A DNA stretch of 63,821 nucleotides, counting the filler, from Basidioascus undulatus (taxonomy: Eukaryota), in the NCBI GenBank assembly GCA_000826855.1. It is 4 parts of 4 records of this genome, joined end to end, with 100 filler letters (N's around TTAATTAATTAA, not from the genome) between each part and the next. Parts side by side here need not be neighbours in the genome. Positions count along the whole stretch, not along the records: positions 15,107 to 30,112 come from JTLS01000672.1; 3 more parts are not named here. One strand, given 5' to 3'. The number at the start of each line of letters is the position of its first letter. Within the stretch, counting starts at the first letter, position 1. This document shows positions 16,805 through 30,112 of this stretch, in pieces. The notes under the pieces are model-generated. The model ran no database searches and was not told the origin of the DNA. It was given only the letters and a program-made list of their open reading frames with translations. The position numbers and the translations under genes are program-made.

Positions 16805-16810
16805 AAAAAA
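16805..16810 (-). terminator. RNA polymerase III terminator (T6)
   Basis: TTTTTT begins 1 nt after tRNA position 37; the same arrangement occurs in copy 2. Confidence 0.8.
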
Positions 16811-16811
16811 G

Positions 16812-16884
16812 TCGTAGTCAGATACTCTACCATTGAGCCAGCCGGCCGTGACCGACGCAGGGATCGAACCTGCAACCCCCTGAT
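16812..16884 (-). tRNA. Circularly permuted tRNA-Arg(ACG), copy 1 (3' half 16884-16849, 1-nt spacer, 5' half 16847-16812)
   Basis: Minus strand reads ATCAGG GGGTT GCAGG TTCGATC CCTGC GTCGGTC A / C / GGCCGGC TG GCTC AATGGTA GAGT A TCTGA CT ACG A. Swapping the halves gives a complete 72-nt cloverleaf. Confidence 0.93.
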
Positions 16885-16892
16885 CTCGACTT

Positions 16893-16903
16893 CCACTACC
16901 TTA
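16893..16903 (-). promoter_or_regulatory. A-box-like element in the leader of permuted tRNA copy 1
   Basis: TAAGGTAGTGG resembles the A-box consensus TRGCNNARYGG; same position as TAAGCAAGCGG in copy 2. Confidence 0.55.
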
Positions 16904-18042
16904 GGCGAAGCGGTGTCTCTTATTTTGCCTTATGCACTCATGTTCGTTGAATATCTAGCAGCCCAGAAGATGGCAGGATTCAGATATACTGGTCTTCAGG
17001 CAGAAAATATTGACAGTCAAGAGATTTCAGCACTGTGATCAGGGCCAGGGCTCGTTATAGAATGCAGCCAGCGCCAGACTGCAGTGTCACCACACGCAAG
17101 AGGCCATATGCTGTCTGGTCAGCGCTGATCAACGCTTGCAGGAGTTACCTCCACCCTTTTATTGGGAAATAAAAGTTAACTTCCATCCTCCACGTTGGTT
17201 TATTTCTGTGGAAACAGGGCCCTCGTGCACCTTGCAATGAATATCCGTTAGCATCAAGCTTCCTGCTGAGGCTTAAGACCAGAGCTATGTGACACCCTCA
17301 CCGACTCCCAAATCCTGAGCATGACTTCCAGAAAACTCGCAGTGGAGGGCGTGCGGTCACACAGACATGAACGGCGCGATAGCGGGTCGGAGGGGCAAGG
17401 TAAAGGCGGAGGCCGTAGCCCTCGTGGACGCACGGAGGGTTTTGAAGACAGGGAAGGTCGAGGTGCTCGGGACGAATTGGAGAGCGGATTTGGCTCAGAA
17501 GATTAGGAGGAAAGGGAATTTTCCATCAGGTTGCTTTCGGCGAGGCGAAAGTCCAAGGAGGGCTGGGCGCGGTCTTCCACTCGAACAAACCATACGGTAG
17601 CATGTAAGGCTTCCGCTGCATGAGATTCACCTGCTCTAGAGAATGTGAGAGTTATTTTTAAAGTGGAAGTGGAAGACCAGATTTCTCTCTACTCTCCAAC
17701 TGCGTTTCTAAGTCTCTAAAGGCAAGGTCGGAACCGCAGGCGCCGCGGCGTGCTGTTTTCGCTCGAAATTGTGCTACAGCCCGGATATTCCTCCAGTCAG
17801 TTTAAAATTGAAGTTTGGAGAGAGGTCTTCTACCAGTGTCCTCCCTCTGATACGAGCTTGCAAGCGCTCAGTATGAGCACTTGCTGTAGAGCAAGGCTAG
17901 TGGCCTTCTCCATTCCACTACACGGCTAGTAGCGGTAGAGGGACTTCTGTTCAATGACTCAGGCGAGTCGAGCCCAAGTACATCTTGGGATCACTTTTGT
18001 GCTGCGAGTCGAGAAAAATAACAAACGTGTGAATTCAATATT

Positions 18043-19096
18043 TTAATCGGTGGCATTATACAGCTTCATGACAAAGGGTGACCAACCCAAACAAGACGCC
18101 CAACTGTAGAGCTCATTCTCCATCAAGCCTTGTCCATCCCCAATGTCTCCTCCAACGTCATGCCGCGCATGTCCCACAACGTGCCCTCCAGTAACCCATC
18201 CCGCACCGCTGCACCCACCGCCGCCAAAGCCCCAGAAGACCTGCCCGGGAGCCCTGCAATTCGACGCACTGAGACCCGGACTTTTGCCTTTGCAGGCCTC
18301 GTAAATAGAGCTCAAAAGGTGGCAAATATCGAGATCGTCTGGGTGTATGATGAGAACGTGCTCGAGAACGGGCATGGCAAGAAGAAAGACCGGAACAGAA
18401 TGGCCGTGTTGGACGAAGCCCGGTCTGTCGCAAAACTAGCTGAGTCAAAGAGGTGAAGTTGGGGAGGCGAAGTGTCCCGCCCCAGAAGAAATTACCAACC
18501 ACGACGCAAAGCCGACAAAGGGTCCCTGCGCCTGGCTGCAAGAGGATTTCGATGAGCATTTTCAAGGCTATCCAGTGCCTGTTCAGTGACACTCGGTCTC
18601 AGTCTGATGACTGCCAGTTCCTGAAGATTGAGGCGTCATATGGTCCAACTCAGCGGACTACGGCGCTTGTACCATTTCGACATCTTGCTCAAACAGGTCG
18701 ACAAAGTCAAGAGAGATGACAAGCCGGTACAGATGTGGCTGCATGACTTTGAAAGCGCTTTTGGCCTTCTCTATGGCCCCGGCGGGGGCCTCTCTTGTGA
18801 GTGACAGCATCAGGTCGTCTGGGTCGCATAGAGCAAGTGATTCGATGAGGTGCAGGGACCATTCCGAAGATGGGTCCGTGCTGGTAAGCGACAGGACTGA
18901 CGGCCTGCAGAGAGAGCGGTGGAGGTGCGGAAGAGCGACGTCCCTCACCCCGCGCGAGACGCCCCGTGCGAGACAAGCGTGAGTGTGAGAAGTGTGTCCA
19001 TGACATCTCAGGGTTCACCCGTAGGCCAGTGGGTGCGAGAGCGGCGAGCTGCTCAGTGACGTGCGCGACGATGTCGAGCGGGATCGAGATGGGCAT
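18043..19096 (-). pseudogene. F-box/LRR-like protein pseudogene between the two tRNA copies
   Basis: MPISIPLDIVAHVTEQL, TLLTLTLVS / RGVRDVALPHLHRSL, LNLQELAV, FTSLTQLVL and MPVLEHV lie in different frames. A 14-bp duplication at 18948-18974 shifts the frame, and there is an in-frame TAG at 18658. Confidence 0.6.
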
Positions 19097-19351: not shown

Positions 19352-19357
19352 AAAAAA
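19352..19357 (-). terminator. RNA polymerase III terminator (T6)
   Basis: TTTTTT begins 1 nt after tRNA position 37. Confidence 0.8.
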
Positions 19358-19358
19358 G

Positions 19359-19431
19359 TCGTAGTCAGATACTCTACCATTGAGCCAGCCGGCCATGACC
19401 GACGCAGGGATCGAACCTGCAACCCCCTGAT
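19359..19431 (-). tRNA. Circularly permuted tRNA-Arg(ACG), copy 2 (3' half 19431-19396, 1-nt spacer, 5' half 19394-19359)
   Basis: All 72 mature positions are identical to copy 1; it differs only at the spacer base and in the leader. Confidence 0.93.
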
Positions 19432-19439
19432 TTCGACTA

Positions 19440-19450
19440 CCGCTTGCTTA
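19440..19450 (-). promoter_or_regulatory. A-box-like element in the leader of permuted tRNA copy 2
   Basis: TAAGCAAGCGG, same spacing to the B-box as in copy 1. Confidence 0.55.
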
Positions 19451-19819
19451 AGCAGGGCTGTGACAACCTGTGTCTTTTCATTCTTATGTCCATTCTCTCA
19501 CTGTCACTTGCTTTAATCATGCCAATCGTCGAGCCATTTGGCCTTCTACTGCAAAATTTCAATAGGTGGAATTATCATCATATTTGCTGAAATTCCATCC
19601 AGGGTTCGGCAAAGCAAACAAGGCGCGTTTTGAGACTCTGCGAGCGGCCAAACATGGACGGAAGCGGCGGGTCCCAATGTTCACTTTTGCTTAGTGTAGT
19701 TTTCCCACGCTGATCTGCTTCGCTGCGGCCCCTTTCCCTCTTGTTTCCTCGCTCTCGTTTCTGGTCTCATCGCCGCTGCTAAGACAGCAGTCTCTTAAAC
19801 CCAACCCCTTCTCCTGATT

Positions 19820-21432: not shown

Positions 21433-24400
21433 TCATGCGACCCACTTGCGAGCGGAGACGAAGAGCGACTGCCACGGGCCGGCGCCCTTCCAGGCCTTAA
21501 CCTGCGCGGGGTCGACCCAGGCGTTGGACTCGGCGAGGGTGCTGCGCTCGGGGCTGCCAGAAAGACAGGTCAACAGTGCACGACTAGGACGTTAAACGGG
21601 AAGCAGGGACGCACTGAGGCATGACCATGAGGAAGCGGCCGTTCGCGGAGGAGACACCGGCTGTTCGGATGAAGAGGGCGTGTCAGATCGGCTATAGGCT
21701 ACGGAGGCGGGAGACGACAAACCAATGGCGTCGGGAGAGCCGTTGATGTTGGCGGGGTACTTGACGGCCGGCGCGCCCTTCGAGTCGATATACCGCAGCG
21801 CAACCAGGCCCTGCTTCTTCAGCGCCTCGCGGTCCACGTCCGAGCGGAACGTCGCGCGGCCCTCGCCGTGGGCCTGAGCAGAAAGAAAGGACGTAGTCAG
21901 CAGCCCGCCCAACTCAGACGGGAAGGACAGACACAAAGCAACATACGATCGCAACGGGGAGCCTCGAACCCGCCATGTCCTTGAAGAAGACCGAGTTGGT
22001 GTCCTTAGGAATCTCGACCTGCGCCGTGCGGCCCTCGAAGCGCGAGCTCCGGTTCGGCTTCCACACGGGCCAGTGCTCCGCGCCGGGGATGATCTCGCGG
22101 AGGTTGCCGAACAGCTGGCAGCCGTTGCAAACGCCGAGGGCGAACGTGTCCTCACGCTCGCCGAAGAAGCGCTCGAACTCTGCGCGCGCGGTCGGGTTGA
22201 GAAGGATCGACTTGGCCCAGCCGTTGCCTGCGCCGAGGACGTCGCCGTACGAGAAGCCGCCGCACGCGGCGAGGCCGCGGAAGGCGTCGAGCGAGACCGC
22301 GCCGGAGAGGATGTCGGACATGTGGACGTCGACGGCCTCGAAGCCGGCGGCGTGGAAGGACCACGCCATCTCGACGTGCCCGTTCACGCCCTGCTCGCGG
22401 AGGATGGCGACCTTGGGGCGGGCGGTGAGGGCCTGCGGGAGGCGCTCGACCGCCTGCGCAGGGTCGAACGTGAGTTCGTACGACAGCCCCCCGTCCGCGT
22501 CGTCCGCGATCGCGTCGTATTCCTCCTGCGCGCACAACGGGTCGTCGCGCAGGCTCTGCATCCGGTACGAGGTCTCCGCCCACGCTTGCTGCAGCGCCGC
22601 GCGCGTCGCAGTAAAGATGGGGCGCGAGCTCTGCGCGACGGTGATCGTCTGGTCCGTGCGATCCGTGCTGACCGTGCCGATCGCGTGGATGGCGGTTGTG
22701 GGAAACCCGGCCTTGGCGAACACCGCGGCAAGGGTGGGGAGGTCGGAGCGGCGGACCTGGACGACGGCGCCGAGCTCCTCGTTGAAGAGCGCCGCGATGG
22801 GGTCCGCACCGAGCGAGTCAACCATGAGCTCCACGCCCGCGCGCCCAGCGAACGCCATCTCGGTCACAGTCGTGAAGAGACCACCGTCGGAGCGGTCGTG
22901 GTACGCGAGCACGAGGTCGGGGTGCTCGGCCCGCACGAGCTGCGTGGCGGCGAAGAAGGCCTTGAGCACCGCAGCATCCTCGACGTCAGGCGCCTCGCTG
23001 CCGATTTGCTTGAAGACCTGGGCGAGCGCAGAGCCGCCAAGGCGCTGCTTGCCATTGGCGAGGTCGAGGAAGACGAGTGCAGTGTCGCCGACGTCGGTCC
23101 TGGGAATCAACGGCAACACGTGTAAGCTCAAGAATCCAGATATTAACGCATTGCAACATTGCGAATGACTCACCGAAGCTGGGGCGTCCAGGACTGGGAG
23201 ACGTCGAGCACAGGCGCAAAGGCAGTGACGATGAGGGACAGCGGCGCAGTGACCTGCTTGTCCTCGCCCGCGTCCTTCCAGCGCATGCTCATGGACATCG
23301 AGTCCTTGCCGACGGGGATGCCGACGCCGAGCTTGGGGCAGAGATCGATGCCGATGGCCTGCACGGCCTCGTACAGGCGCGCGCCCTCACCCTCGTGCGA
23401 CGCGGCCGACATCCAGTTCGCGCTCAGCTTCGTTCGCGAGAGGTCCTCGATCCGCGCCGCGGCGAGGTTAGTCAGCGACTCGGCGACGGCCATCCGCGCG
23501 GAGGCGGGCGCGGAGAGCAGCGCCAGCGGAGTCCGCTCGCCCATCGCCATCGCTTCGCCCGCGACGGCATCGAAGCCGTAGGAGGTGCGGGTGACGGCGA
23601 CCTACGAGAAAGCCGGGGTCAGTTGAAGGAAGAAAATGGGGAGAAGAAGGGGAAGAACGCACGTCAGCGACAGGCACTTGCCACGGGCCGACCATCTGCT
23701 CGCGCGAGACGAGACCGGTGATGCTGCGGTCGCCGATGGTGATGAGGAAGGACTTGGAGCCGACGCTGGGGAGGTGCATGACGCGGTCGACCGCGGTGGC
23801 GAAGGTGTCCTCGAGACAAGGTGAGTTGGGGAGGTACGAGGCAAGGGACGAGTCGAAGGGGACGCGGGGCGGGTTGGCGGTCAGCGCGTCGCGGTGCATC
23901 TTGGGCGGCTTGCCGAACAGCGTGGACATGGGAAGGTCGATGGGCGTGTTGCCGAGCAGGCGGTCCGTCACAACAAGGCGCTCCTCGGCGGTCGCGACGC
24001 CGACGATGGCATACGGACAGCGCTCGCGCTTAGCGAGGGCCTCGAAGGCCGCGAGGTTCTCTGGGCCGACGGCGAGGACGTAGCGCTCCTGGGACTCGTT
24101 GCACCAGATCTCCATGGGGCTCATGGATTTGTCGTCGACGAGAACGTCGCGGATCTCGAAGCGCGCGCCGAGGTCCGAGTCGTGCACGAGCTCGGGGAGC
24201 GCGTTCGAGAGCCCGCCCGCGCCGACGTCGTGCACGCTCTGGATCGGGTTGCGCTCGCTGAGGGACACGCACGCGTCCAGCACCTGCTGGCACCGTCGCT
24301 GCATCTCGGGGTTCTCGCGCTGGACCGACGCAAAGTCGAGCTCGGCCGAGGACGCGCCCGAGGCCATGGACGAAGCGGCACCGCCGCCGAGACCGATGAG

Positions 24401-25783
24401 CATGCCGGGACCACCGAGGACGATGAGGTGCGCCTCGGGCGTGATCTTGGACTTGTGCGCGAACGCGGGGCGCACGTTCCCCATCCCGCCCGCGATCATG
24501 ATCGGCTTGTGGTACCCGCGCACCTCGGTCTTGCCGTCCTTCGAGAGCGGCACGGTCTCGGCGAAGGTGCGGAAGTAGCCCGCGAGCGCGGGGCGGCCGA
24601 ACTCGTTGTTGAACGCGCTTGCGCCGAGCGGGCCCTCGAGCATGATGTCGAGCGCGGAGGCGATGTGGCTCGGGCGCCCGAAGTCGGTCTCCCACGGCTG
24701 GACATGCCCGGGGATGAGCAGGTTCGAGACGGTGAAGCCCGCAAGGCCGGCCTTCGGCTTCGACCCGCGCCCGACGGCGCCCTCGTCGCGGATCTCGCCG
24801 CCGGAGCCCGTGGCCGCGCCGGGGTAGGGCGAGACGGCCGTGGGGTGGTTGTGCGTCTCGACCTTGACAAGGAGCGGCATGTCCTCCTCCGTCGCCGCGT
24901 ACGCCGGCGCCTTGCCCGGCTCCTGCACGACCGCGGCGAAGCGCGGGGCGCGCGAGCCCTCGAGCACGGCGGCGTTGTCCGAGTACGCCGAGATGGTGTG
25001 CTTGGAGCCGATCGTCTTCTCCGTGTTGCGGATCATCTGGAACAGGCTGAGGTCGCGCGGCTGCCCGTCGACCGTCCACGACGCGTTGAAGATCTTGTGC
25101 CGGCAGTGCTCCGAGTTGACCTGCGCGAACATGAAGAGCTCGACGTCCGTCGGGTCGCGCTTGAGCGCGGACGTCGGGTGCGCGACGAACGCCTGCACGA
25201 GGTACTCGATCTCGTCCGGCGCGAGCGCGAGCCCGAGGCGCGTGTTGGCTTCCACGAGGGCCGCACGCGCCTCGGCGGCCTCGCCGGGGAGCGCGACGGT
25301 GCGGAGGGGCGCAGGCGCGGCGGTGTGGAAGAGGTCGGCCTCGGCAGGCGGCGCGGGGAGGACGAGTTGCGTCATCCGGTCGTGGAGGAGGTTGATGAAC
25401 CCGCTAAGGTCGTTGAGGGTGAGCGTGCGCTGGTCGGACGTCCCGAGGACGAGCGCGATGCCGCGCTCGATGCGGTTGACCTTGCCGTCGAGGCGGCACA
25501 TGCGCGCGATATCAGTCGCCTTGCTCGACCAGGGCGAGATCGTGCCCGCGCGGGGGACGACGTAGAAGGTGTTGGAGGAGAGGACGAGCTCGGACGGCGA
25601 GTCGTAGACGAGGAGCGAGTCCAGGATCGCTTTGTCCTCGGCAGAGAGATCGGCGAGCGTCGAGACGAAGTGCACGAAGCGGGCGTCGAGCGAGGTGAGC
25701 GTGGGGATGAACGCCTGCGCCGAGCGGAGGAGGGACGCCCGCTTGGCGGGGGGGAGCGCGGCGGGACCAGCGAGGAGCAGCAT
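21433..25783 (-). CDS. ADE6: Phosphoribosylformylglycinamidine synthase (PurL)
   Basis: [110 protein letters not shown] at 21433-21435. Confidence 0.98.
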
Positions 25784-26532
25784 GGTGGTAGGGTGAAAGG
25801 CGGGAAAGGAAGAGTTGTGTTGGGAGATCTGGGAGATGGGCGGGAGGTGAGGTCGGGTGCAACTCGGTGGGAAGGACGGCTACGCACCTGGCTCAAGCTC
25901 TGGTACGATGCTTTTAAGATAGCTCTCTACACAGCGCCTGCGCAGAACGACTACTTCCCCAGCCGATCCCTCAGCAACCCGCCCTTTACCCAGACGTCGC
26001 CGCAAAGAGAAGACGCACCGAGAAGGAGCTCGGAAGGAAGACGACCAGCAGCGGGGGAGCAGCTAGGTCTGTGGCGAGGAAACTGTCAGTATACCGTCTG
26101 TGCGACTTTTACCTAAAACCCGAAGAATACACACCGATCAAACTGCCAGAGCTGTGGGCAGCAGCGAGGGCGCAGGGAAGGGATGGACGTGGTCAAGAGA
26201 AGACCGCCTTGCCGCTCGCTCCAGTTTGACTCCGTGACATCCGAAATTTTCGACTTGGCAGTTCGCATCGCAGGCTCGCCCCGTGTCCCATCTTCATTGG
26301 AAATATTTGCTCAATTGAAATCAACAATTTCCAAAATTATATTATGCTATTATCATCACGGGAGGGACTCAGAGCCACGGAAAGAGCAAGGAGCAAGAAA
26401 GCTGCCCCTGGATTCCCACACTTTCTCAACTCAGCGCGCTGCTGACACAGCAGCCTCCGACCAAAAGTGCTCGTCCTTGCCGCTCTCCATGCCTCCTTCC
26501 TCCATTCTCTCTCCGCCGACCCTCGACTCGCC

Positions 26533-28093
26533 ATGGCAGCCGTAGCGCCCCCATCAGTCCCCACGTCCTCCTTGGACACCCCGCTCGTCGCGCAGGCCCC
26601 GACGACCGCGCCGGCCGAGTATCGCTTCACCTGCCAATGCTGCGGCGTCGCGTTCGCCACCGCCGACGAGCAGCGGCTGCACTACAAGACTGACTTGCAT
26701 CGGTACAACATGAAGCGGTGCGTCCACCTCCTCCTTCTCTCTTACCTCCTCCATGTCCCCAACCAGATGGTTCTCCTCAGCCTTCTTTCGAAGCACCGCT
26801 GACATGATGTCGGGGACGCTCCTCCAGCCGCATCGCCAATCTTCCCCCCGTTACGGCGGAAGTCTTCAACGCCAAGGTCCTCGAGCGGCGCGTCGAGAAC
26901 GTCGCCTCCGCGCAGCCGCAGCGCCTGAGCAAGTCGCGCGACTACGAGTCCGAGGGCGTACCCATCCCGTCCCACCTCTCGAGCAAGAAGCACAAGGCCA
27001 AGCAACTTCAGCGCGCGCTCCGCCTCTCCAAGCAGACTCCCTCCGCCTCCCACACCCCTGACGTCGACACTGCCATTCCTGATGCCGACGCCGCCGCCTC
27101 TTCCTCCTCCGTCCCCGCCAACGAGAAGACGGAGGAGGAGCTGATCGCGGAGCGTCTCGCGGCCGCCCCTCGCCTCTCCTCGCTCGACTGTCTCTTCTCC
27201 CCGCACCGCTCGGCCACGGTGGAGGAGAACCTCTCCTACATGCAGCGCGCGCACAGCTTCTTCGTGCCCGACGCGGAGTACTGTGTCGACCTCCCCGGGC
27301 TGCTGCAGTACTTGGCGGACAAGATCTCCGTCGGGTACACGTGTATCGCGTGCGGGAGGGCGTTCCACTCGCTCGAGGCCGTGCGCAAGCACATGCGCGA
27401 CAAGGCGCACTGCCGCGTCGCGTACGACTCCGAGGCGGAGCGCCTCGAGGTCTCCGACTTCTACGACTTCTCGGCGACGTGGGAGGGCGTGAGGACCAAG
27501 AAGACCAAGGGCAAGGGCAAGAAGGCGGAGAAAATGGCGGTTGATGGGGAGGAGGGCGCGGAGGACGAGGAGTGGGAGGACGACGACGCGGTCGTATCCG
27601 GCGAGGAGGACGAGGTCGTCTACCTCTCTCGCTCGGACGACAACGAGTCCGACGCGGATTCGGACCTCTCCGACGCCGATGCGCTCGCCTACGGGGACAC
27701 GCCGTTCGAGCTCGTCCTCCCCTCGGGCCGTCGGCTCACCCACCGCGCAATGGCGCACTACTCGAAGCAGCGTCCTCTCCCGGCGTCCCTGACCGCCAAG
27801 GCCGAGCGGCGCACCATCGCGGACCGCCTCGCCCAATCCAACGGCGCGCTCGTGCTCGCCAGGAACGGCGGGTTCGAGGTCATGAAGGCGCGGAATGCCG
27901 GCGAGGCCAAGTGGGCTGCTAAGCAGCACCGCGAGTTCAGGGACATCCAGAGGAGGGAGCAGTTCAAGACTAAGGTCGCGTTTATCCACAACAGCCAGAA
28001 GCACTTCCGGGATCCCTTGCTGCAGGTGCGTCGTTCGCCGCTCTCGCGATCTTCGAGCGATGGGTGGACTGACGCCCGTCGTCTTCACAGTGA
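26533..28093 (+). CDS. REI1: Pre-60S maturation factor Rei1/Reh1 (ZNF622)
   Basis: FTCQCCGVAF...HYKTDLHRYNMKRRIANLPPV, HSFFVPDAEYCVDLPGLLQYL, SLEAVRKHMRDKAHC, LVLPSGRRLTHR and HNSQKHFRDPLLQ. The stop codon is separated by intron 28026-28090. Confidence 0.95.
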
Positions 28094-29479: not shown

Positions 29480-29860
29480 TATTTTTTCTGGGCGATCACG
29501 AGCAGGCTAGGCGTGTTTGCTGGCTGCCCAGGCTCATAGGAGGCCTGGGTCTCGAAGAATTGGGCATCTTCAACGTCAAAGCAGCCACAGACCCCTCCAA
29601 GTTTTCTCCTTCGGTGTGGCTTTCCGCAATGGTTACTCCACCAACCGTTGCTGCGCTGTGCCCGGTCTGCGTCCCCAGTAACCGTGTGTTCTGGAGCAAC
29701 TCGCCATTCCCTTTTCAGAGCTTCACCTCCTTGACTCACCTCGTCTTCCAATATGAGAGGTCCTTCAACGTGGAAGTTTTCCCAGCGTTCCTGGCAATGC
29801 CGGTTCTCGAGCATGCCTCATTCACCCAGACGATCTCGACGTTCGCCATCTTTTGAACTC
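29480..29860 (+). pseudogene. Degraded paralog of the F-box/LRR-like gene at 18043-19096
   Basis: 29720-29860 matches the reverse complement of about 18308-18460 (FTSLTHLV, MPVLEH, CACCCAGACGATCTCGA). 5' extent uncertain. Confidence 0.55.
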
Positions 29861-30112
29861 ACTTCGTGATGCAAGCAAGAGAAGGATCCTTCAAGTGTCG
29901 GTGCATCAAAGGTGCCCCTGGTGATGCTCCGACAATCGGCACCCTCAGTAGGTGCGGTGGTGCGTGATGCGCTACTGGAGGGTACGCTGTGGGATATGAA
30001 CAGATGACGTTGAAGGAAGCCCTGGGGATGGACGGAGCGTGATGGAGATTAAGCTTTTCTCGTCGCTTCTCATTGGGGGCGCGGGGGGGGGGGGGGGGGG
30101 GGGGTTCCCCCC

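Follow-up and report, generated by a model that had tools for sequence, protein, structure and literature searches.

Two circularly permuted tRNA-Arg(ACG) genes are found in a contig of the basidiomycete Basidioascus undulatus. Judging from the sequence, they most probably belong to a working, multi-copy type II gene, permuted at the 37/38 junction; we give this reading, including the transcription and processing steps proposed below, a probability of about 0.8. The permuted Arg(ACG) genes are apparently the only source in this cell of a tRNA reading CGC and CGU. The genes are placed at 16805–16914 and 19352–19461, both on the minus strand, of the window, that is, the whole stretch of 63,821 nucleotides which we have analyzed.

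Structure of the permuted genes

On the minus strand, each gene is formed by a leader, tRNA positions 38–73, one base, positions 1–37, and a trailer of C and six Ts. The leader of copy 1 has a predicted hairpin (16893–16914, leader positions −30 to −9). It holds an A-box-like motif (16893–16903), which agrees with seven of nine consensus positions and is found 23 bases upstream of G53. Transcription would probably start near the upstream edge of this hairpin. The leader ends with A-G-T-C-G-A-G (16885–16891, G(−3) at 16887), the 3′ piece of a split intron. Next come the 3′ exon (16849–16884, positions 38–73, A38 at 16884 and A73 at 16849), with its B box at 16870–16860, the single-base spacer C (16848) between A73 and G1, and the 5′ exon (16812–16847, positions 1–37, G1 at 16847 and A37 at 16812), which includes the native A box (16840–16830) and the anticodon ACG (16815–16813). 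The trailer (16805–16811) is the 5′ piece of the split intron: C(+1) at 16811 and the T6 Pol III terminator at 16810–16805.

Copy 2 is found 2547 bases from copy 1, and its exons are identical. Its leader, with a hairpin and an A-box-like motif (19450–19440), is at 19440–19461, the leader end at 19432–19438 (G(−3) at 19434), the 3′ exon (38–73) at 19396–19431, the spacer at 19395, the 5′ exon (1–37) at 19359–19394, and the trailer, with C(+1) and the T6 terminator, at 19352–19358, all on the minus strand. The leader ends in G in copy 1 and in A in copy 2, and the spacer is C in copy 1 and T in copy 2.

The arrangement is that of a type II gene. The 3′ half is upstream of the 5′ half on the same strand, with the acceptor ends joined. 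A Pol III T-run follows the 5′ half and none is found in the intervening sequence. The 37/38 junction agrees with the structure, a seven-base loop with U33 and an intact 27–31/39–43 stem. Neither ARAGORN nor Rfam detected the permuted copies when run on the window.

Two protein genes share the contig with the permuted tRNAs: an ADE6-type phosphoribosylformylglycinamidine synthase gene (21900–25813, minus strand) and the gene for the pre-60S factor REI1 (26829–28028, plus strand). Two inverted stretches, 18110–18350 and 29818–30055, are 77–79% similar and probably correspond to a small, degraded repeat family; the former is placed between the two tRNA copies.

Copy number and families

The genome assembly we have searched is fragmented, with 32 Mb in 2992 contigs. 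A DNA search detects at least 40 Arg(ACG) matches (40 of 45 candidates scored), with E values from 4e-39 to 5e-28. We have parsed 43 contig placements, 30 of them with a distinct full leader, which corresponds to at least 30 loci; this is a lower bound, as placements at contig ends may represent the two ends of one locus. The exons are nearly invariant, with identical sequences in 36 of the 38 3′ halves that are complete and in 28 of the 31 such 5′ halves, while the flanks vary. When a TTTT run is present, it starts no more than four bases after A37 in 28 of 29 Arg(ACG) copies. One decayed copy (L056, C24:4330–4830) has an altered anticodon loop and has lost the 3′ arm of the anticodon stem and the leader; it is excluded from all counts.

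A pattern with a B box followed by an A box gave 81 matches, compared with 15 in the control, and revealed two more permuted families. The Thr(CGT) family has 12 copies (L041–L043, L045, L047–L054), with spacers of 8–13 bases which extend the acceptor helix. Their acceptor stems differ but remain paired, with seven of seven pairs in 10 of the 12 copies. The three Arg(TCG) copies (L044, L046, L055) differ in sequence and have spacers of 4, 20 and 0 bases. When the halves are placed in mature order, ARAGORN calls a tRNA in all 41 complete genes (26 Arg-ACG, 12 Thr-CGT and 3 Arg-TCG); in genomic order it calls none of the 41. Three more searches, which allowed for other letters in the A box or for longer spacers, revealed no additional permuted family; their 5, 18 and 18 matches are at background level.

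Genes with an ordinary layout were sought for the same tRNAs. No tRNA-like Arg(ACG) is found among 35 matches of a pattern which allows introns of up to 29 bases (54 matches in the reversed-pattern control), nor is an ordinary Arg(ACG) present among 15 matches of another pattern. No other tRNA-like 5′ half with ACG was seen by eye among the 100 matches listed out of 130. For Thr(CGT) and Arg(TCG), no ordinary nuclear gene appears in 43 matches of a pattern which did recover ordinary Pro, Arg(CCG), Arg(CCT) and Arg(TCT) genes; one Arg(TCG) is found in contig C2990, amid organelle-like tRNAs. In the two exons of the window which we have counted, CGC and CGT account for 57 of 73 Arg codons (78%), and ACG for 26 of 54 Thr codons. 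Since ordinary Arg(ACG) genes were not found and CGC and CGT are heavily used, the permuted genes very probably supply the tRNA. The same grade is given to Thr(CGT) and Arg(TCG); in all three cases the census is based on patterns in a fragmented assembly, from which an ordinary gene could escape.

Some other features of the tRNA set may be mentioned. Pattern searches detect no nuclear tRNA-Thr(TGT) in either layout, the only one being in C2990; the nuclear gene may be disrupted in some other way or absent from the assembly. Ordinary genes for Asn-GTT, Ala-AGC, Arg-CCG, Arg-CCT, Gly-CCC and Ser-GCT are found both with and without a 37/38 intron; this suggests that introns are still being lost or gained. 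Several loci (L060–L065, in C2990, C2992, C1206 and C952) contain organelle-like tRNAs, an AT-rich tRNA cluster which includes a UCA anticodon, and a bacterial-type Ile/Ala tRNA pair with encoded CCA. The assembly includes organelle DNA and, probably, foreign DNA.

Transcription signals in the leader

Inverted A and B boxes are considered unfit for TFIIIC in the review PMC3978253. We have scored A-box-like motifs of 11–12 bases at nine consensus positions, with a threshold of seven. Of the 45 leaders, 37 contain such a motif upstream of the B box; its start is between −18 and −23, and each of the three families has examples. It is found in only 14 of 85 regions upstream of ordinary genes, in 5 of 45 regions further upstream, and in 22% of 9000 shuffles. 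Fisher tests give p values of 3e-13 and 6e-12, to be read with the caution that the copies are not independent. The genome encodes Tau95 and B-block (TFIIIC) domains. These data suggest that the leader motif is a probable substitute promoter.

Some details call for caution. Position 10 of the motif is mostly A, and its distance to G53 is 22–24 bases, compared with at least 33 in ordinary genes. In favour of the motif, an AT-rich zone (0.63) is found 32–51 bases upstream of it, at the distance which separates this zone from the true A box in ordinary genes (28–47 bases upstream of T8). TATA is present in 8 of 45 upstream regions of permuted genes and in 9 of 63 of ordinary genes, and TATAWA in none of the 45 permuted regions (−70 to −51). 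The arrangement is not that of Cyanidioschyzon merolae, with an upstream TATA-like box and without TFC1 and TFC3.

The arms of the leader hairpin covary: matched arms give −6.33 and swapped arms −5.21 (p 0.0004, n = 30), while in Thr leaders the values are −7.43 and −4.21 (0 of 20000). The GG of the motif could be kept for the hairpin rather than for the promoter. The hairpin may be what selection acts on, or a device which holds a D-loop mimic out of the tRNA fold.

The split intron

An earlier note on this DNA had described leader and trailer as a split intron with a BHB-like motif. Its reading of the leader end, GTCG followed by A and a purine before A38, agrees with the sequence of both copies in the window. 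The third-last base, G(−3), was said to be able to pair with C32; it is invariant (33 of 33) and the pair is possible in 21 of 21 copies. This invariance and the covariation of leader and trailer in the Thr family, described below, speak for a split intron.

Two registers are possible, three bases apart. In the first one, GTCG faces C32-U33-A34-C35 and forms three of four pairs, as had been stated; three pairs are found in 17 of 20 Arg(ACG) copies. In the slipped register, AGTCG is perfectly complementary to C35-G36-A37-C(+1)-U(+2). This pairing had been noted as a mere alternative, but both energy and sequence variants favour it. When energies are evaluated for the two copies in the window, the BHB register gives +0.6 and +4.4 kcal/mol, compared with −12.2 and −8.4 in the slipped register, a disadvantage of about 13 kcal/mol. 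The probability of the slipped register is 0.99 and 0.70 in the window copies and 0.46 on average over 14 Arg(ACG) folds, while that of C32·G(−3) is 0 in 29 of 29 folds. As a whole, the precursors are no more stable than shuffled sequences (z −0.69 and −0.12).

The leader end of Arg(ACG) is highly conserved: T(−5) in 32 of 32 copies, a pyrimidine at −4 in 33 of 33, and a purine at −1 in 37 of 37. The base at −4 can pair with U33 in none of 21 copies and with G36 in all 21. The other slipped pairs are equally constant (−3:35 in 21/21, −5:37 in 20/20). In three copies, where pairs −6 and −7 are lost, the leader end is instead fully complementary to U33–A37, and the −5:37 pair, U-A in Arg(ACG), is C-G in all three Arg(TCG) genes. 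The predicted pairing of the terminator Us with GGAA in the leader is possible in copy 1, but it is weakly kept: copy 2 has one U·U, and −8:+3 pairs in only 8 of 20 copies. Another register, with the leader on G30–C35, was rejected: it is in conflict with the anticodon stem, and its pairs are less well kept (−8:34 in 9 of 20).

In the Thr family, the leader–trailer duplex is stronger with the proper trailer (−4.7) than with swapped ones (−2.55), a difference reached in 1 of 100000 permutations, or in 2 of 720 when six distinct trailers are considered; in 3 of 12 copies, the proper trailer pairs no better than others. Permuted copies are related, so these counts and p values overstate their independence.

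The BHB-like motif is only partly upheld. The C32 pair and a three-base bulge are possible, but the strict form (hBHBh′, a central 4-bp helix between three-base bulges) is absent: a complete helix is found in 0 of 35 copies, and its register is disfavoured. A relaxed splice junction can be formed, with the anticodon stem, the C32·G(−3) potential, the possible bulge and leader–trailer pairing; the review PMC3978253 accepts relaxed motifs such as hBH, HBh′ and “no H”.

As a control, we have considered 65 ordinary intron-bearing genes of the same genome, taken from the 100 matches listed out of 140. They have a purine at −3 in 58 cases and a 32:−3 pair in 44, and not one of them forms the whole 4-bp helix. 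Several ordinary intron families, such as Ser(CGA) and Ser(AGA), also have an intron end complementary to the anticodon in a slipped register; the shift of the Ser(CGA) introns is the one seen in the leaders of permuted Thr(CGT) genes. G is kept at −3 whether the anticodon C is at 34 (10 of 12 Thr copies) or at 35 (Arg), which fits a position set by C32 on the enzyme. The use of C32·G(−3) by the enzyme is suggested by this conservation; pairing with the anticodon C would explain G(−3) as well. We picture the substrate as a eukaryotic ruler-type one, with an anticodon–intron pair, rather than a pre-formed BHB.

The acceptor join

The earlier note pointed to a single nucleotide between A73 and G1, and to a nearly closed acceptor loop. 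Both observations hold: a one-base spacer is found in all 43 Arg(ACG) placements (C in 20, A in 12, T in 11, G in none), and the loop is unusually tight. CCA is not encoded, so the loop is only A73-N, below the minimum of three bases for a hairpin. In 14 of 14 folds the probability of G1-C72 is 0.0, and a four-base loop closes on G2·U71 instead. One Arg(TCG) gene (L055) has perfect stems and no spacer at all, G1 coming directly after G73. RNase P leaves a 3′ hydroxyl at its cut, which here would be on N or on base 73. Published algal intervening sequences have 5–74 (PMC3978253) or 5–85 bases (PMC3218864); a join of zero or one base without CCA is tighter than any case in the reviews which we have consulted.

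The consequences would depend on the spacer. C74 is described in the literature as inhibiting tRNase Z most strongly; a spacer of C may therefore just remain as the first C of CCA. We propose that an A or U spacer needs trimming by Trz1 or Rex1. With a C spacer or a zero-base spacer, tRNase Z may be unnecessary.

Processing enzymes and proposed mechanism

The enzymes invoked by the earlier note are all encoded in the genome. There are two catalytic subunits of the tRNA splicing endonuclease (SEN), presumably Sen2 and Sen34 by their motifs. The ligase domain of Trl1 and the RNase P RNA are present. A tRNase Z gene was found with TIGR02651, though not with PF13691 or PF12706; the match is below the family cut-off and covers one exon, and the gene has the PxKxRN and metal-binding motifs. 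The catalytic motifs of SEN and tRNase Z, as read in single exons, look unremarkable.

The mechanism which we suggest builds on the gene anatomy, the copy number, the conserved leader and trailer signals and these enzyme genes, all of them read from the sequence; the steps themselves are inferred. TFIIIC would bind the A-box-like motif of the leader together with the 3′-exon B box; in this way the normal order, A followed by B, would be restored. The Pol III transcript would be a single RNA, some 110 nt long, with CUUU(U) at its end. This precursor would adopt a cloverleaf fold, its anticodon bases 35–37 covered by the leader end in the slipped register. The splicing endonuclease, with a ruler based on the tRNA body, as is usual for the eukaryotic enzymes, and with C32·G(−3) formed when bound, would cut after 37 and before 38, and Trl1 would ligate 37 to 38. 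G1-C72 would be unable to close over two bases, leaving a frayed C72-A73-N-G1 loop on G2·U71, to be opened by RNase P with just one cut before G1. A C at N would be kept as C74, and A or U would be trimmed by tRNase Z or a 3′ exonuclease. In the gene with no spacer, one RNase P cut would create both ends.

The tight acceptor loop must be opened whatever the order of these steps. If RNase P acted first, the acceptor would be opened in the nucleus, and SEN would later splice a two-piece RNA held together by its stems, with no obligatory circle; we give this order roughly an even chance. An order with the circle first, as in algae, is a real but lesser possibility, and a mixture of both orders takes what remains. 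In budding and fission yeast, published work places the maturation of ends in the nucleus and splicing on mitochondria after export. Since end maturation precedes splicing in yeast, a circle should not be assumed to come first, and the order with RNase P first is slightly favoured. The complete picture, a fungal permuted system which supplies all of the main Arg tRNA and two others, with a rebuilt A box in the leader, a join of zero or one base opened by a single RNase P cut, and two-piece maturation free of circles, is tentative, and we place it a little below even odds.

Alternative explanations

The mechanism of the earlier note differs from ours in having the BHB-like junction as the folded substrate: SEN would cut both termini, Trl1 would make a circle, and RNase P and tRNase Z would open it. 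Circular intermediates have been shown by RT-PCR in red and green algae (PMC3978253), the invariant G(−3) and the frequent three of four helix pairs agree with such a junction, and the tight acceptor loop could delay RNase P so that splicing comes first. On the other hand, of 10 distinct metagenome loci with a permuted tRNA-Cys, 6 have the complete BHB helix which our 35 copies lack, and neither the folding energies nor the order of events in yeasts suit this proposal, which we consider possible but clearly less than an even chance. Transcription could also be driven by an upstream AT-rich or TATA-type element together with the B box, as has been proposed for permuted genes in algae (PMC3978253). 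The leader motif would then be a remnant of the D loop of a lost first copy, kept for the hairpin. Its GG-TAG resembles the D loop of the gene itself, as the tandem duplication model for the origin of these genes predicts (PMC3978253), the hairpin arms covary, and the gap between A and B boxes is short. Nevertheless, TATA boxes are scarce upstream and TFIIIC subunit genes are present. T8, A14 and purine 15 of the motif are mostly in the hairpin loop or vary in their pairing, and nonetheless they are shared by three unrelated tRNA families, with a constant distance to the B box. We find this explanation rather unlikely.

The remaining explanations deny that these are genes of the fungus which supply a tRNA, and both are difficult to maintain. 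The high copy number and the decayed copy might indicate a tRNA-derived repeat, similar to a SINE or TRIM, or a set of pseudogenes. But ordinary tRNA families are likewise abundant in this genome, and the flanks differ beyond a leader of about 30 bases and the T-run, with no shared body or terminal repeats as in SINEs or TRIMs. Complete cloverleafs, near-invariant exons and three isotypes are found, and no other gene was detected for codons which amount to 78% of those for Arg in the two exons considered, so such a repeat is very improbable. An assembly artefact or foreign (algal) DNA seems even less credible. Many copies do lie at contig ends, and some contigs have organelle-like and bacterial tRNAs, but both window copies are inside one 15-kb contig with unique flanks, alongside ADE6 and REI1. 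The named relatives of REI1 among the 120 or more matches are all basidiomycete, as the host must then be, but at 42–47% identity the top matches include no close relative of it. The spacer base also varies between copies, and there are 30 distinct leaders. A working permuted gene is the reading which we maintain.

Comparison with known systems

Type II permuted tRNA genes are known from Cyanidioschyzon merolae, Ostreococcus, Micromonas and the nucleomorph of Bigelowiella natans (Soma 2014, PMC3978253); Auxenochlorella also has permuted tRNA genes (PMC12633428). Most eukaryotes are described as lacking them in PMC3978253, which explains their presence in algae by upstream promoters and relaxed splicing, and leaves open both transcription from inverted A and B boxes and the removal of a one-base acceptor loop. 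In the open-access literature which we have searched there is no report of a fungal case; supplementary tables of permuted genes could hold shorter spacers. As far as these searches reach, permuted tRNA genes are apparently found here in a new kingdom.

Related genes were also sought in other data. A metagenome scan for permuted relatives of Arg(ACG) gave none. A wider pattern gave 22 metagenome loci, none of them from the three fungal families. Fifteen are permuted tRNA-Cys(GCA) genes, probably algal (L093–L095, L097, L098, L101, L102, L104, L105, L107–L109, L112–L114), with spacers of 6–12 bases and a BHB helix which is mostly complete. Five others (L096, L100, L103, L106, L110) have, in permuted order, a T arm, an acceptor-like hairpin with a short loop and a D arm, with no clear anticodon loop at the end; they are possibly bacterial or phage tRNA-like RNA. 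A viral scan detected only two ordinary tandem tRNA stretches.

If tRNA inventories of fungi are made with programs such as ARAGORN and Rfam, blind to permuted copies, genes will be missed. In a published survey of Trichosporonales, many genomes are reported to lack tRNA-His or tRNA-Asp; similar permuted genes may be concealed there. For the questions of transcription and of the acceptor loop, the genome provides natural series: spacer lengths are 0, 1, 4, 8–13 and 20 bases, and the promoter-like motif can be followed, at shifting positions, across 45 leaders. No set of these enzymes has been studied better than the fungal SEN, Trl1, RNase P and Trz1, so the genes may be directly tested in yeast.

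The fungal genes share several features with algal type II genes: the 3′ half, intervening sequence, 5′ half and T-run on one strand, the 37/38 junction, the absence of an encoded CCA, and a leader and trailer which act as a split intron. They differ in the basidiomycete host, in copy number, with one gene present at least 30 times instead of once or twice, and in the length of the intervening sequence, a single base (none in one Arg(TCG) gene) compared with the algal ranges given above. They also lack a complete BHB helix, and Arg(ACG) does not figure in Table 1 of PMC3978253. The C. merolae genes are TATA-driven in a genome without TFC1 and TFC3 (PMC3978253), whereas in the fungus TFIIIC subunits are encoded and the leader has an A-box-like motif.

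A one-base intervening sequence is also found in the permuted tRNA-Tyr(GUA) of Thermofilum pendens (Chan 2011, PMC3218864). That gene is archaeal, has a 59/60 junction and encodes CCA, which gives an acceptor loop of five bases; here there are only two, A73 and N. The ordinary fungal precursors with a 37/38 intron, which are cut by the SEN ruler mechanism with an anticodon–intron pair (PMC10275265, PMC3978253), resemble the permuted ones in the purine at −3, the potential C32·G(−3) pair and the slipped intron end complementary to the anticodon. In the permuted genes, unlike ordinary introns, the intron loop is open, with the leader as its 3′ part and some five bases of trailer as its 5′ part. 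In summary, the fungal genes depart from known type II genes in the closure of the acceptor by zero or one base, in the lack of a pre-formed BHB and, probably, in an A box placed in the leader.
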